From NCBI GenBank assembly GCA_951406725.2, contig OX597819.1:9920001-9984000 (forward strand): a stretch of 64,000 bases of DNA, given 5' to 3'. Positions within the stretch are counted from its first letter, which is position 1, and each line of letters starts with the position of its first letter. The notes beneath the pieces are model-generated. The model had not been told where the DNA came from and ran no database searches. It worked only from the letters and a program-made list of their open reading frames with translations. The position numbers and the translations under genes are program-made. This DNA comes from Octopus vulgaris (taxonomy: Eukaryota). This document shows, piece after piece, positions 25,901 to 34,593 of this stretch.

Positions 25901-28900
25901 CACTTAGCAGTTCGGCAAAAAGAGACCGATAGAATAAGTACTGGGCTTACAAAAAGAATAAGACCCGGGATCGAGTTACTCGACTAAAGGCGGTGCTCCA
26001 GCATGGCTGCAGTCAAATGACTGAAACAAGTAAAAGAGTAAAAGAGTCTAGTGCTGTGGATTAAGCAAACTGTAAGAATGTTGGGCTGGGTGTGTCATGA
26101 TATGTGTTCTGTGTTCTAAGTTCAAATCTCAGCAAGACCTTCTTTGGTGATAGACATAATCCATCACCCAATTTAACACTTTAGCAGAGTCAATTCTGTT
26201 GCAAACATTCAGACCAAGTCTCTGGTTTGAGGGTATCTTCCTTCCGCCCTTTTCACTTAGCTGAGAAGCTTTGAAAAACATCATTTGCACTTGCTTTCGT
26301 TTGACTAAAAGATGAAAAAAAAAAGTATGTTTATATATAATGTGTGTGTGCATACTACTATTTACAAACACATTATACACACACACACACACACTCCTTG
26401 ATGGTTTAGAAACTATGCTTCACACATGCATTCCATTTCCGGCATGGTTTCTATGGTTTGTAAGGCAGCGAGCTGGCAGAAACGTTGGCACACCAGGTGA
26501 AATGCCTAGCGGTATTTTGTCTGCCGTTACGTTCTGAGTTCAAATTCCTCCGAGGTCGACTTTGCCTTTCATCCTTTCGCGGTCGATCAAATAAGTACCA
26601 GTTACACACTGGGGTTGATATAATCGACTTAATCTGTCTGTCTGTCCTTGTTTGTTCTCTCTGTGTTTAGCCCCTTGTGGGTAATAAAGAAATAGGTTTC
26701 TATGGTTGGATGTCCTTAGCACCACCATTGTACAGAGGGTACATGGATGCCATTAACTCCAAATAAGAACTGACTCATGTAGTAGTATACCACCAAAATA
26801 GTTAAACGAAAAAAGAAACTATTAAATGATGGTGATTGTGTGTGTGTATATGTTGTATATTTTATTTGAATATAATTTTAAAACCTTTTTAATTTTTGGC
26901 CAGGCTTTCGCCAAAATCTTCAACAGCACTCCTGACGACCTGGATATGCATGTGATTTACGATGTCTCACACAACATTGCTAAAGTAGAAGAGCACTTTA
27001 TTGACGGCAAGCAGACAACCCTATTGGTACATCGGAAGGGCTCAACACGAGCATTTCCTCCACACCATCCTCTCATTCCTGTAGACTACCAGGTATGTTT
27101 TGCTTTTGAAGATTTTATCAATAATGTTTTTTTTTTCAAGTTAGAAGAATTTTTAATGTTCTCATTCTAGCTCAATTTTAGACCTTACTAGCAGTATCGC
27201 CCAGCGTTGCTCGGGTTTGTAAGGGAAATAACTATATAAGCATTTTTAGAGATGTTAAGTATAATAGCCATCTCAATATGGCTAACCACAAAGGGGGGGG
27301 GTGTTACTGTAGCTTTTTACGTTCTGAGATTTAATAATACATTTTTAGAGAGTTACTTCCCTTATATATGCCAAAAAGGCATTAAAAATGGGGAAAATTG
27401 ATGGTAAATTTTTTTTAAAAATCGTCTGGCACCTGTGTCGGTGGCACATAAAATCACCCACTACACTCTCGGAGTGGTTGGCGTTAGGAAGGGCATCCAG
27501 CTGTAGAAACACTGCCAGATCAGACTGGCCTGGTGCAGCCTTCGGGCTCCCCAGACCCCAGTTGAACTGTCCAATCCATGCTAGCATGGAAAGCGGACGC
27601 TAAATGATGATGATGAGACTCATCGTAGACGCGCGCTAATACCCAGAAGGGCTCAATATGAATCACGACTATAAGATACCCGGTTTTGGTTAAACTGCAC
27701 CGCAAAATGTGGGAGTAGTTAGGAATCTAAATCGTAGGAGACAGACACACAACTTCACTTTTATATATAAAGATATGCTTCAGAGAATCTGCATAGGTGA
27801 GTGCAACTATCCAAGAGATTGACAGTTCACATCCTGCCAGGGGTACCGTATTGTGTCTGTGACCAAGACACCTAACTTTGAAATGGCTTATTTCTACTTT
27901 TTACAGAGTAGAAACAACTCGGTGCTATAAGCAGTAATACTAAATTGATGAGTGTATCGTTAACTAGCAGTGCTGAGTTCAAGTTTAGCCTGTGTCATTT
28001 TAAATATGACAAACTAGTACCTAATACAATGGTACATTACTAATTAAAGTTAAGCATTCAACCTGTGTCATTGTTTATATTTTAAGATTAAATACATATG
28101 GATACAGCAATTGCAGCGTGGAAGGTGTTTGTAAGCCATTTAAGAAACGCACAAAAGCCGTTCAATTCACTTCAACATTTAAGTTTAATTTGCCAAAATA
28201 TTTTCGTCGCTAAAATCCGTGAACTGTTCACTGACAAAAATCCGTGCTGCATCTCAGTGAACAGGTCGCAGATTTTATCGACGAAAATATTTTGGCAAAT
28301 TAAACTTAAATTCACCCACTACCAGAATGCATGACAATGACCCATAGACTACTCAAAGTGCATCCAAGAAATTGACTTTATCAGATTTATCAAAATTTAT
28401 CACTGACATAATGAAATTAAAACATATTTCAGTCACACACGTCTCGCATTTCTTTTGTGGTTCAGTGTATAATTTTCAATACTAGCATGGGTATAGCAGT
28501 TATTTACTCAAAAATATGAGTGTTCAATCACTTTAAATCTTAAGAAGAAATTACTGACTGGAATGTTAGATATAAATCTGGGAAAGTATAGTGCTTTAGC
28601 TTCAGTATCCAAAATAGTTGGGTTAAAACAGAAAACGGTAATAACAGTGTTGTGGATGTTATAATCATTTTTACCAAGAATATATTGGCTAGGTGGGTCT
28701 AGGATACAATTCTTCTGTATATCTAGATTGCTCAAACTGTTTTTCATAATCTCATACTAAGGGATTTTTTATACTCACATGTTCTTGTCACTAATTGTTG
28801 CAACAGAACATATAATGAATATTCTGTTGTGTCTGGAGAGAGTCATTCTCTTTTAGTGCCTTATTATTTAACACACTCACTGGTAAAATTTCCACTGAAG

Positions 28901-31900
28901 CACCATCCGATCGTGGCCGTTGCCAGCCTCGCCTGGCCCCCGTGCCGGTGGCACGTAAAGAGCACCATCCGTCCATGGCCGTTTGCCAGCTCCGTCTGGC
29001 TCCTGTGCGGGTGGCACGTAAAAAGCACCCACTACACTCACGGAGTGGTTGGCGTTAGGAAGGGCATCCAGCTGTAGAAACACTGCCAGATCTGACTGGC
29101 CTGGTGCAGCCTTCGGGCTTCCCAGACCCCAGTTGAACCGTCCAACCCATGCTAGCATGGAAAGTGGACGTTAAACGATGATGATGATTATGATGATATT
29201 GGCTAGGTGGGTCTAGGATACAATTCTTCTGCATATCTAGATTGCTCAAACTGTTATAATCTCATACTAAGGGATTTTTTATACTCACATGTTCTTGTCA
29301 CTAATTGTTGCAACAGAACATATAATGAATATTCTGTTGTATCTGGAGAGAGTCATTCTCTTTTAGTGCCTTATTATTTAACACACTCACTGGTAAAATT
29401 TCCACTTATTTCTTATTTTTATTTTCTAAAATTTTCATTGCGTCTTGCAACCTTTTCAATAGTCTTTTGAAAAGGTTGCATGATGCAACGAAAATTTTAG
29501 AAAATAAAAATAAGAAATAAGTGGAAATTTTACCAGTGAGTGTGTTAAATAATAAGGCACTAAAAGAGAATGACTCTCCCCAGACGCAACAGAATATGCT
29601 TCAATACACGAACTCATATAAAGAATCTTGCAAACCAAATCCAAAAACGAAATATAATGAATACTTATCTGGTTAATTAATCTTGCTTGTCTTTAAGAGC
29701 AAAGATGACCTTATATATTTTTATCTTTTCTTTAATACAGTTAACTGGTCAACCTGTTTTGATTGGTGGAACAATGGGAACTTGTAGCTATGTACTGACT
29801 GGTACTGATCAGGGAATGGAAGATACATTTGGAACAACATGTCATGGAGCTGTGAGTGTCCCTTTTTTTTTCTTTTTTTCTTTTTTGACACAAAAATTGA
29901 TATTACATTGTATTTATGGTCGGAGATTGGGATTAATTATATAGGAAGTTCATTTATTCTTTCTTTTATTCTTTTACTTGTTTTAGTCATTTGACTGTGG
30001 CCATGCTAGAGCACAGACTTTAGTTGAGCAAGTCGACCCCAGGATTTATTCTTTGTAAGCCTAGTACTTGTTCTATCAGTTTCTTTTGCCGAACCGCTAA
30101 GTTACAGGGGACGTATATACCCAAGTAATGCTGGGGGGACAAACACAGACACACAAACATATATATACGATGGGCTTCTTTCAGTTTCTGTCTACCAAAT
30201 CCACTCACAAGGCTTTGGTCAGCCTGAGGCTATAGTTGAAGACACTTACCCAAAGTGCCACGCAGTGGGACTGAACCCAGAACCATGTGGTTGTTAAGCA
30301 GGCTACTTACCACACAGCCACTCCTACGCCTTAGATATATATATATAGGTAGCGGGGCTCCGAAAGGGATCTTGGGGAATATCATCCCCGCCTTCCTGAT
30401 CTAGTTTTCTACTGCATTTCTTAAAAATCGTTGTAGGGGCCTTGGTTTTGGGACCACTGAGGTTGAGCAAGGGCATACTCCCCATAAAAAATCCAATGGG
30501 CACCAGCCAGCCCAAAGGTTGGGTTGGGCTGCACCTGCCTACCTCAGTTGCTATGGCATTGAGGTATATCAGGCCACCCCCGTTAACGGGGACAAAACCC
30601 AGTTTTAAAACACTGGATGATGATGATATACAACAGGCTTCTTTCAGTTTACCAAATCCACTCACAAGGTTTTGATCAGCTCGAGGCTATGATAGAAGAC
30701 ACTTGCCCAAAGTGCCACACAGTGGGACTGAACCTGGAACCATGTGGTTGGGAAGCAAGCTACTTACAACACAGCCACTCCTGCGCCTGATTGTTATTCA
30801 CGGTTTGTAAGGTATTTGAGGACATAGCTTTTCTGGGTCATTGCTGCATTTTTTGCTGATGCTGTATAATCTTTGATTTAGAAAATAATAATGACAGACT
30901 CTTGGATTACTCAAGAAATGAAGAGGCATGTTGCCATTGTGGTTGTAAAGGCTGAGCATAGCAATTTAGAAATATCTTGATTTTTAAAGTTCCCAGATCT
31001 CTTATCTACAAAGTTTGTAAGGACCTAGAGACTGAAGATGGAAACATCACCAGTATCAAAGCATAAAAAGCATTCTAAACGCTCTAAAATCAACAGAACA
31101 CCTGAATTTATCCAGCAAGTTCAACACGACGTCAATTGCAAAAGATCTCCATGTGTCTAAAGGAACAGTCAGAATGTTGTTTACGAAGACAGATATAAGT
31201 CTTATATGATGAGGAAAGGTCAATTTGTCAGGAAAAGCAAAAGAAAATCAGTACATCGGATCTAAAAGACTCTTAACCCTTTAGTGTTCGCATTATTCTG
31301 CCAAAATTAATCCTTTTTTATCTACACTACCTTGAACTAATCAGGCATTATCTTGGAGTTATGAGATTTCGATGAGGTAGCTGTTGATTTTTAAAACAAT
31401 ATTGTAGGGCTGGTGTGAGAGACCAGATCTGGCCAGTTTGAACATAAAACAGGTAGAATACTTTTAGCCGGATATGGCCGGTTTAAATGCTAAAGGGTTA
31501 AACAAACTGAAAAATCCAACAGAAGATTTGATTTTGTTCTTCTGAAACAAGAAAAACTTCGACCATGATCAAAAGGTTAACAGAAGAAATGACAAATGGC
31601 TATGTGAAGACCCTTCTGAAGTTCCAAGTGTTATGCATACAAAATTTCCTACAACTGTCATGGTTTTAGGGATTGCCAGCAATGAAGACATGTGATGCCG
31701 CCTTCTTTCCACAAATCCTGAGAGTTAACTATAATTGTTAATGGAAATAATTAAGCCCTGGATAGACAGTGCATGCAATGGAAGGTCATATGTGTTTCAG
31801 TAAGACCCTATGGCTTTAGTAACACAGGAATGAATGGCTGAAAATTTTCATGACCACATAACCCTTAACATTTGGCCCCCTAATTCCACAGTGCATGTCG

Positions 31901-32221: not shown

Positions 32222-34593
32222 ATGTATAATCATATCAAAAGGGAAATGGAATTTAATTAAATTTAAAATATTCAATCAAAATTTACATTTCCAGTGGTCT
32301 AATGTGTAAAAAATTAGTCAAGAAGACTATATATTAGTTATACGATATAGTGCATATATATACACATAAGGAATCCACACTTAGGGTGAAATTCAACATA
32401 TAGAACCACAAAAATAACGGATAAGATTCGACAGGAACAAAATTTGGAAATGAAAAACATTTACCATTTACCATGTTTTCCTTTCCAAATTTTGTTCCTG
32501 TCGAATCTTATCCGTTATTTTTGTGGTTCTATATGTTGAATTCCACCCTAAGTGTGGATTCCTTATGTGTATAAATATACACTATCGTGTATATATATAT
32601 ATATATATATGAAACGTATTGTTCAATGTAAAATTATTTTTTTGCTTGTTTTGTTTTTCCTGTTAGTAAATATATGAAACCTCTCTTGTTTAAATTAGGG
32701 CCGAGCACTTTCCCGTGCCAAATCTCGTCGTAATCTTGATTACATGGACGTTTTAGAGGCCTTAAATGCTCAAGGAATCAGTATACGAGTAGCTTCCCCA
32801 AAACTTGTTATGGAAGAGGTAGGTTGATTGTTTTTTTTCCTTCTACCTGCAACAGTATTCTTATTTTGTTGTGTCTGAGGAGAGTCATTCTGTTTTAATG
32901 CTTTATTAATTAATTAATACATTCGCCGGTTCAATTTCCACTCATTTACTTATTTATTATCTTTTCTTTTCTAGAATTTTCATTACTTCTTGCAACGTCT
33001 TCATTAGTCGTTGACTGTCTCTTATCAGAGTGGAGTTCTTGTTTGTTTGTTTGTTTCTGCACACGGCTAGCCTCGTGCCGGTGGCACGTAAAAAGCACCA
33101 TCCGTTCGTGGCCGTTGCCAGCGCCGCCCCCGACTGGCCTCGTGCCGGTGGCACGTAAAAAGCACCATCCGTTTGTGGCCATTGCCAGCCTCGCCTGGCC
33201 TCCATGCCGGTGGCACATAAAAAGCACCATCCGTTCATGGCCATTTGCCAGACTCGTCTGGCACCTGTGCAGGTGGCACATAAAAAGCACCCACTACACT
33301 CACGGAGTGGTTGGCGTTAGGAAGGGCATCCAGCCGTAGAAACACTGCCAGATCTGACTGGGCCTGATGAAGCCTTCCAGCTTCACAGACCCCAGTTGAA
33401 CCGTCCAACCCATGCTAGCATGGAAAGCGGATGCTAAACGATGATGATGATGTATATGCATCAGTGTGCATGTGTATACATGTATGTATAATATTATTAT
33501 CGTTATTCACTAGCTGGACCCGTGAAAACTTCACGGAAAACATAAAAAATGTAAGCATCTGTAAATCGTGTACTGGAACAGTGAGAAATGTTTCTATATT
33601 GTGACACTTAGAAAATATAGAAAGAAGTTAGGGTTAGAAATGTTAAGGGGAAAAAAATGTTAAGGTCATTTCTGACCACTGCTTGAAAGTGAGCCAACGT
33701 TGAAGACAATAAATTTCAAACAGCTTACATTGCTTTAGTTATCAGAAAAGTAGCAATTTACCTTTGCTACTTTACTGCTCATGGAATCCTTTGTATGTTA
33801 TTCCTTGAAGCTGATTTTATTTAGAAGCGAAAAATATACTTCTTTCCACTTCGAAAAGAAAAACAAAAATCGCATACAAACATGGTTTATACACATGTAT
33901 GTATATTTCTTTTAAAAAAATTTTTTAAATAACTAAAACCAACTTAAAAGGGGTTCCTATTCAAACACAATAACTATATAATCCAACTAAAATATCTCAG
34001 TTATGCAGACACAAACGGAGTTACTATTATCCTTAGAATACATTGTACGAAATCAAAGAAACTTCTTCGTTTAGAGGTACAGAATGTTCTTCTGGTAGTC
34101 TTTTATTCTTTGACTCATTTCGGTCATTTAACGGTGGCCATACTGGAGCATCGCCATTTCGTCGAAGAAATCAAACCCTGGACTTATTCCCCGTGAGCCT
34201 GGTGCTTATTCTGACAGTCTCTGCCAAACCACTAAGTTACGGGGATGCAAACAAACCTGCATCGGATGTCAAGCATTGGTAGTGGGGGGAACAAAGAGAG
34301 ACGAACACAAACATATATATCATCATCATCATCGGACGTTAAACGATGATGATGATGTATATATGTTTGTGTTCGTCTCTCTCTTTGTTCCCCCCACTAC
34401 CAATGCTTGACATCCGATGCAGGTTTGTTTGCATCCCCGTAACTTAGTGGTTTGGCAGAGACTGTCAGAATAAGCACCAGGCTCATGGGAATAAGTCCAA
34501 TATCCCTATATACATATACATGCGTATATACACATATGTAAACACACATATATATCTACACATATATACACACACATGTATATACATATATGC

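Follow-up and report, generated by a model that had tools for sequence, protein, structure and literature searches.

An inverted repeat in intron 9 of the octopus RtcB gene carries, in each arm, letters close to those of a minimal hammerhead ribozyme whose tertiary 3-8 pair reads G-C instead of C-G. The question raised by this locus is whether the repeat belongs to a ribozyme-bearing retroelement, and whether the copy found here matters to its host gene. A sequence-only reading of the window (the whole 64-kb stretch of DNA analysed) had placed the arms at 28177-28234 and 28254-28311, and these were recovered exactly, with 58 nt in each and a complementarity of 93%. A 20-nt motif from the repeat has two matches in the window, on opposite strands, where 0.03 would be expected. 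The layout described for the arms (GUGAACA, an extra G, stem II, GAA, AAUAUU, U and stem I') can be read in both, and the minus-strand copy does have the 7-bp stem I ascribed to it, one of its pairs being G-U. The intron was also correctly named: RtcB is on the plus strand, and the repeat is flanked by the 9th and 10th of its 13 coding exons, which were placed by short motifs, with PF01139 matches (n = 5). The inverted repeat is thus real, but the element extends beyond it: since the left arm starts at 28108 and the right one stops at 28311, only the centre of a larger insertion (28108-28311) had been seen, and neither arm is intact. The left arm is a short arm, running from the usual 5' end of the family to the nearer of two 3' end points, and by the pattern of the family the plus arm would have been a long one. 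The right end of the insertion is lost, and no target-site duplication was found at the locus. In an Rfam scan up to E 10, the 28 listed matches comprised hairpin-like miRNAs only, all under their gathering scores, and included no hammerhead family. The features are collected in Table 1.

Table 1. Features of the insertion and of its surroundings in RtcB (positions in the window)
Feature	Position	Strand	Details
RtcB coding exon 9	26905..27093 (approximate bounds)	+	host context, outside the element
Short arm of Penelope-like end repeat (pLTR)	28108..28255	-	BLAST match to a natural copy, 96.6% over 148 nt
Decayed minimal hammerhead, minus arm	28189..28238	-	stem I 7 bp; G3-C8 at 28231-28225; stem II broken; predicted cut between 28196 and 28195
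Second arm, sense to RtcB	28254..28311	+	5'-truncated within stem I; ends at 28311
Decayed minimal hammerhead, plus arm	28254..28299	+	stem I 3 bp only; stem II 4 bp; G3 28257, C8 28262, extra G 28264, palindrome 28286-28291, U17 28292
RtcB coding exon 10	29741..29853 (approximate bounds)	+	host context, outside the element

Other repeats lie nearby. A second palindromic stub occupies 29256-29597 of the window, in the same RtcB intron, with a motif on the minus strand at ~29427-29462; it belongs to a sister family with a U3-A8 core and a 4-nt palindrome, copies of which are found downstream of a homologous ORF. A diverged relative (76%) of the U3-A8 end repeat is present at 32862-33008, in the next-but-one RtcB intron. 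There is also a direct duplication of ~210 bp (28682-28896 and 29196-29406, 98-99% identity), which takes in the outer part of the second stub and has a SINE-like repeat between its copies.

The proposal that the arms come from a Penelope family with a variant hammerhead, recognizable by a conserved core, covarying stems and linkage to a reverse transcriptase (RT)/GIY-YIG frame, is borne out by all of these at the level of the family, but not by the window copy, which is decayed. The genome searched (2.8 Gb) is probably that of Octopus vulgaris, since NCBI gives this species name to the best homologue of the element's protein, which matches the genome at 100%. It contains 89 exact 67-mers and 2,806 exact 40-mers of the repeat, and none of the reversed controls of either length; the search yielded 1,766 family candidates, of which 40 were scored. 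The family is an abundant octopus Penelope-like retroelement, with thousands of arms. Position 8 is a C in 5,635 of 5,945 genome-wide pattern matches and another letter in 310; among the first 100 of these exceptions listed, counted by eye, there are 37 G8, 46 U8 and 17 A8, and no C3. G3/G8 mismatches are more than twice as frequent as G3/A8 among these listed exceptions (37 vs 17 of 100), mostly in the form with a 9-nt loop. Given the 37 G8, copies mismatched as G3/G8 may represent a lineage that has spread, or an intermediate. From 80 anchored arms, 65 were long and similar enough to be scored for the core: the full 3-9 core is kept in 63, GAA in 60, U17 in all 65 and the AAUAUU palindrome in 63, while loop II, of which several subfamily forms exist, is the part that varies between subfamilies. 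Stems I and II of 7 and 5 bp were found in 102 identical descriptor matches across the examined loci, which overlap and were in some cases picked for that same string. In place of the canonical C3-G8 letters the family has G3-C8, and so retains a Watson-Crick 3-8 pair. In four sequencing runs, carrying three other organism labels, no listed variant reaching at least 3% falls in the 3-9 core or in stem II, whereas stem I has 2 such sites, loop II has 3 and the downstream part has 22 (about three being private to the reference copy); with a read depth that is lower across the core, this is only a weak hint.

A subset of the downstream-anchored arms shares long upstream sequence, and one of its members (L153) contains RT and endonuclease frames. 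Nineteen of 20 stretches taken around the best RT matches have an RT piece, and 15 of these 19 have an end repeat on the same strand ~1.6 kb downstream. The 5' junction is seen in L243 and L244, where the end repeat continues straight into the frame, the ATG of which is within the end repeat, downstream of the hammerhead motif; the L244 frame has one stop in the 202 codons translated. L153 and L231 are inverted copies. The latter has ~1,000 open codons, encoding a protein of ~1,000 residues without a stop (P0002), the first ~26 residues of which derive from the inversion junction. Its C-terminus matches GIY-YIG (PF01541, residues 915-1005, E 1.8e-5, 25.4 bits for a cut-off of 22.6), with a CCHH in the endonuclease and a short linker motif, CX2-5CxxC, at residue 896. 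Pfam made no RVT_1 call in P0002; its assignment as a predicted RT comes from the motifs DKS, SMDV, GGAIG and YVDD, from a BLASTP match to a PF00078-positive RT (E 6e-9) and from the database name of a homologue. Between RT motifs A and B P0002 has ~130 residues (468-601), and this spacing is roughly halved, to ~64, in the other, Neptune-like Penelope family of the genome. A search for the GIY-YIG family returned mostly another family, of 781 residues, and a piece of our repeat in one of 30 loci (L090); that piece is nested in an unrelated repeat. The 781-residue family (L068-L091) is an unrelated Penelope-like one with a long Neptune-like linker, and past the end of its frame there is also a U3-A8 hammerhead, whose palindrome is ACAUGU.

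Homologous families in the same genome have the same motif in other letters. The family of a 57%-identical homologue has many intact frames of 1,310-1,312 codons at 99% identity, and is very young. In one of its loci (L273, G000:C17:6331579-6336951) repeat, ORF and repeat follow one another, the only case in which a pLTR was seen at both ends within one stretch. The L273 motif, at the same place of the end repeat, has C3-G8 and compensatory changes in stems I and II; its position 9 is a C and its palindrome is imperfect. In L273 and its relatives there are splice-site-like words on either side of the motif. Other motifs, each downstream of a homologous ORF piece of 46-48% identity, carry C3-G8 (L337/L387) or U3-A8 (L317 and L394). 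A degenerate pattern found 8,572 motifs and none in controls; with G3 excluded, a second pattern gave 4,650 motifs, partly redundant, and 5 in controls. A canonical CUGAAGA form and an abundant U3-A8 form are among these motifs. A3-U8 was considered as a fourth state and is not established, with 36 partly redundant matches for 19 in controls. Covariation was scored on nine rows, seven family representatives and the two window arms; these rows are few, related and hand-picked, four coming from one family, and the shuffles ignore relatedness. With that proviso, 7 of the 15 named pairs have both members changed, a number reached by none of 500 shuffles, and slid controls gave 0-3 pairs. The 3-8 pair is G-C in four rows, C-G in three, U-A in one and unpaired in one (L328), and U4, G5, A6, G12, A13, A14 and A15.1 are invariant in all nine. 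Conservation of the core across the clade is not strict, as shown by the C9 of the L273 family and the unpaired 3-8 positions of L328. Nevertheless, homologous sisters with C3-G8 or U3-A8 and compensatory changes in their stems support the hammerhead reading for the family, and with it the earlier interpretation of GUGAACA as the compensatory G3-C8 form.

The ends of the insertions indicate what kind of RNA was copied. The predicted cut site is passed by more than 3 nt in the 5' direction by 75 of the 80 anchored arms, whereas two end within 3 nt of it and three end downstream; most copies thus appear to derive from uncut RNA. Arms frequently end near one point ~22 nt upstream of G3 (33/80); 16 others were classed as longer, among them a few microsatellite artefacts. 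The letter at this point is G in 19 of 28 short copies and C or T in all 27 long ones (loci picked by junction-bearing queries were dropped from this count, in which two pairs are duplicates). A G at the usual 5' end would fit a capped start site; other possible explanations are microhomology and a short first exon. An acceptor-like stretch precedes this end, and no spliced joint was listed there in four runs guessed to be RNA; the start-site reading fits equally well. None of the public runs containing the sequence is recorded as RNA, and the contigs of these four list no ends at the predicted cut, a feature that contigs would not reveal in any case. Arm 3' ends fall into two classes ~59 nt apart. 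In the short palindromes, a long arm is joined to a short one in 49 of 51 rows (one locus being counted twice), the other two rows have a long arm with a further-shortened one, and long+long or short+short combinations are absent from the 51 rows. Duplications of ~11-13 bp in AT-rich targets were seen by eye at five loci (L017, L019, L020, L025 and L029).

These properties bear on two explanations that would remove either the retroelement or its harmlessness to RtcB. A DNA foldback element or MITE with a chance similarity to a hammerhead would account for most short copies being palindromic and devoid of a coding frame, but in such an element one would not look for arms that are unequal in a fixed way, nor for the single-arm and variably 5'-truncated copies that occur here. 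This reading is contradicted by the RT and GIY-YIG carried by the long copies, and none of 20,000 dinucleotide shuffles of an intact end repeat matches a relaxed descriptor that requires 7 and 5 bp in its stems (81 of 20,000 match when 3 and 4 bp suffice); we give this explanation the least credence of all. Hardly more probable is that the window copy has been adopted by the host as a ribozyme cutting the RtcB pre-mRNA in intron 9. The plus arm is indeed sense to RtcB, as had been pointed out, and retains all core letters; the relevance that this orientation hinted at is lost with the decay and predicted sequestration of the copy. The stems of the plus arm are shortened, two stem II pairs (one of them G10.1-C11.1) are gone from the minus arm, and neither window arm keeps stems I and II together with G10.1-C11.1. 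When forced, the hammerhead stems of the plus arm are worth -0.8 kcal/mol, against a predicted -71.9 kcal/mol for the arm-to-arm hairpin, and the first stem II pair of this arm has a predicted probability of ~5e-13 in the pre-mRNA context. Dimerization through a palindromic stem III, also put forward by the sequence-only reading, agrees with the conservation of AAUAUU in the family, but the arms here are on opposite strands, which makes a tandem dimer between them impossible, and the window offers no same-strand partner (the two motif matches are on opposite strands). Furthermore, this copy is one among thousands and its damage is private. With both arms damaged and predicted to be locked in their mutual hairpin, a role in RtcB is unlikely; the window copy is predicted to be inactive in its host gene, and the locus is an ordinary decayed intronic repeat.

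A more serious competitor, although we still hold it to be improbable, is that the hammerhead is vestigial in the whole family, its fold being kept as a structural handle or by descent, with a drifted G3-C8 pair and no useful cutting rate. The scarcity of arms ending at the predicted cut (2/80), the frequency of mismatched G3/G8 copies among the exceptions and the C9 of the recently active sister family are all in its favour, as is the report that hammerhead mutants were without effect on insertion in vitro (PMC11167929). It does not readily explain why changes at position 3 are matched at position 8 among homologous families, giving three Watson-Crick states, or why seven core positions are invariant in nine rows out of nine; moreover positions 3 and 8 make a tertiary contact in the catalytic fold, and in a mutational scan their swap is the sole rescuing double change in the motif (PMC9901934). 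Intact copies form 7 perfect pairs in stem I and 5 in stem II, and both stems are present in the lowest-energy fold of an intact natural copy (-15.2 kcal/mol). The duplex formed by AAUAUU is weak by itself (-0.2 kcal/mol), and the double-hammerhead form was not obtained by unconstrained co-folding of two monomers. In conclusion, we consider it likely that the insertion in RtcB is a decayed palindromic stub of a Penelope-like element, in whose intact copies a natural G3-C8 hammerhead cuts slowly, probably as a dimer, the window copy being predicted to be inert.

A mechanism compatible with such a slow, natural G3-C8 hammerhead can be proposed. Transcription would start ~22 nt upstream of the hammerhead core, and the protein of the element would nick both strands of an AT-rich target. 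Reverse transcription would then be primed at two internal sites, one for each target strand, and both cDNAs would pass the uncut hammerhead towards the 5' end of the RNA, before being joined at their far ends by microhomology, giving an asymmetric palindrome. Such two-site priming predicts the long+short composition of 49 of the 51 palindromes. Processing by the hammerhead would be limited to some transcripts, releasing them from read-through RNA or forming circles, and would be dispensable for each single insertion.

If this reading is true, G3-C8 is a third natural state of the hammerhead tertiary 3-8 pair, and descriptor searches should therefore allow any Watson-Crick pair at these positions. 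We see about even chances for a bolder version, in which the lineage runs on the first described active natural G3-C8 hammerhead and a single octopus clade has walked its 3-8 pair through C-G, U-A and G-C, so that surveys based on CUGANGA would miss thousands of ribozymes per genome, and in which the insertions record two target strands always primed from different RT start sites. Some Penelope families reported to be without a hammerhead could then merit a recheck. Three core states within a clade of a single genome would make a comparative set for the function of Penelope hammerheads, and the strict pairing of long and short arms a genomic constraint on the mechanism of Penelope insertion. 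Head-to-tail arrays of G3-C8 end repeats, with (TA)n between the units, were observed in L061 (G000:C30:8688500-8697500), L258 and L259; they are natural same-strand tandems in which dimer cleavage could be looked for.

Much of this architecture is already described for Penelope hammerheads. Minimal type I hammerheads were reported in the pLTRs of metazoan Penelope-like elements, with a low activity in vitro (Cervera and de la Pena 2014, PMC4209133). The octopus motifs share with them the pLTR location, the extra base between positions 9 and 10.1, G10.1-C11.1, the palindromic stem III and a frequent U17, as well as the occurrence of opposite-strand pairs 100-700 bp apart. The extra base is G in the octopus family, whereas it is H in the consensus of that work. 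The single natural 3-8 covariation given there is U3-A8, a form that was also reported in PMC3088659 and that the octopus clade has too; the G3-C8 core of the octopus family does not appear in the accessible part of PMC4209133, and five passages of its supplement contain no octopus entry and no G3 core. G3-C8 is treated as a laboratory mutant in the parts of PMC9901934, PMC8495972 and PMC3884650 drawn upon here, and the swap was only partly active in the laboratory (PMC8495972, PMC11167929); PMC6765202 provided context. Thus U3-A8, the extra base and the opposite-strand pairs are already published and natural G3-C8 apparently is not: neither it nor an octopus Penelope hammerhead was found in the literature searched, the coverage of which leaves out Lunse et al. 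2017, Hammann et al. 2012 and Seehafer et al. 2011, where entries could exist.

The nearest functional comparison is with the Poseidon element PAc of Anolis (PMC11167929). In PAc too the ORF starts inside the pLTR, the tail is set by two internal sites at which the RT starts, and the RNA copied is mainly uncut; RNA ends at the hammerhead cut site were not seen in the experiments described in the available text. The C3G/G8C exchange, which partly restores cleavage of the PAc hammerhead as a laboratory mutation, is the wild-type state of the octopus family. The two elements also differ by the position of the ATG, ~57 nt downstream of the cut in the octopus family and upstream of it in PAc, by the length of the tail (~59 nt vs 30-40 nt), and by the strict long+short pairing of the octopus element, which the text available for PAc does not mention; in vitro, PAc shows no difference between top and bottom start sites. 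As judged by eye, the octopus endonuclease resembles the Nematis rows of Fig. S2 in PMC8557442, with a C-terminal GIY-YIG, CCHH and a short CX3CxxC linker. This likeness is one of endonuclease features. The wide spacing between RT motifs A and B sets P0002 apart from the Neptune-like family. The octopus element and Nematis also share (TA)n-rich targets and inverted, 5'-truncated copies (PMC8557442).
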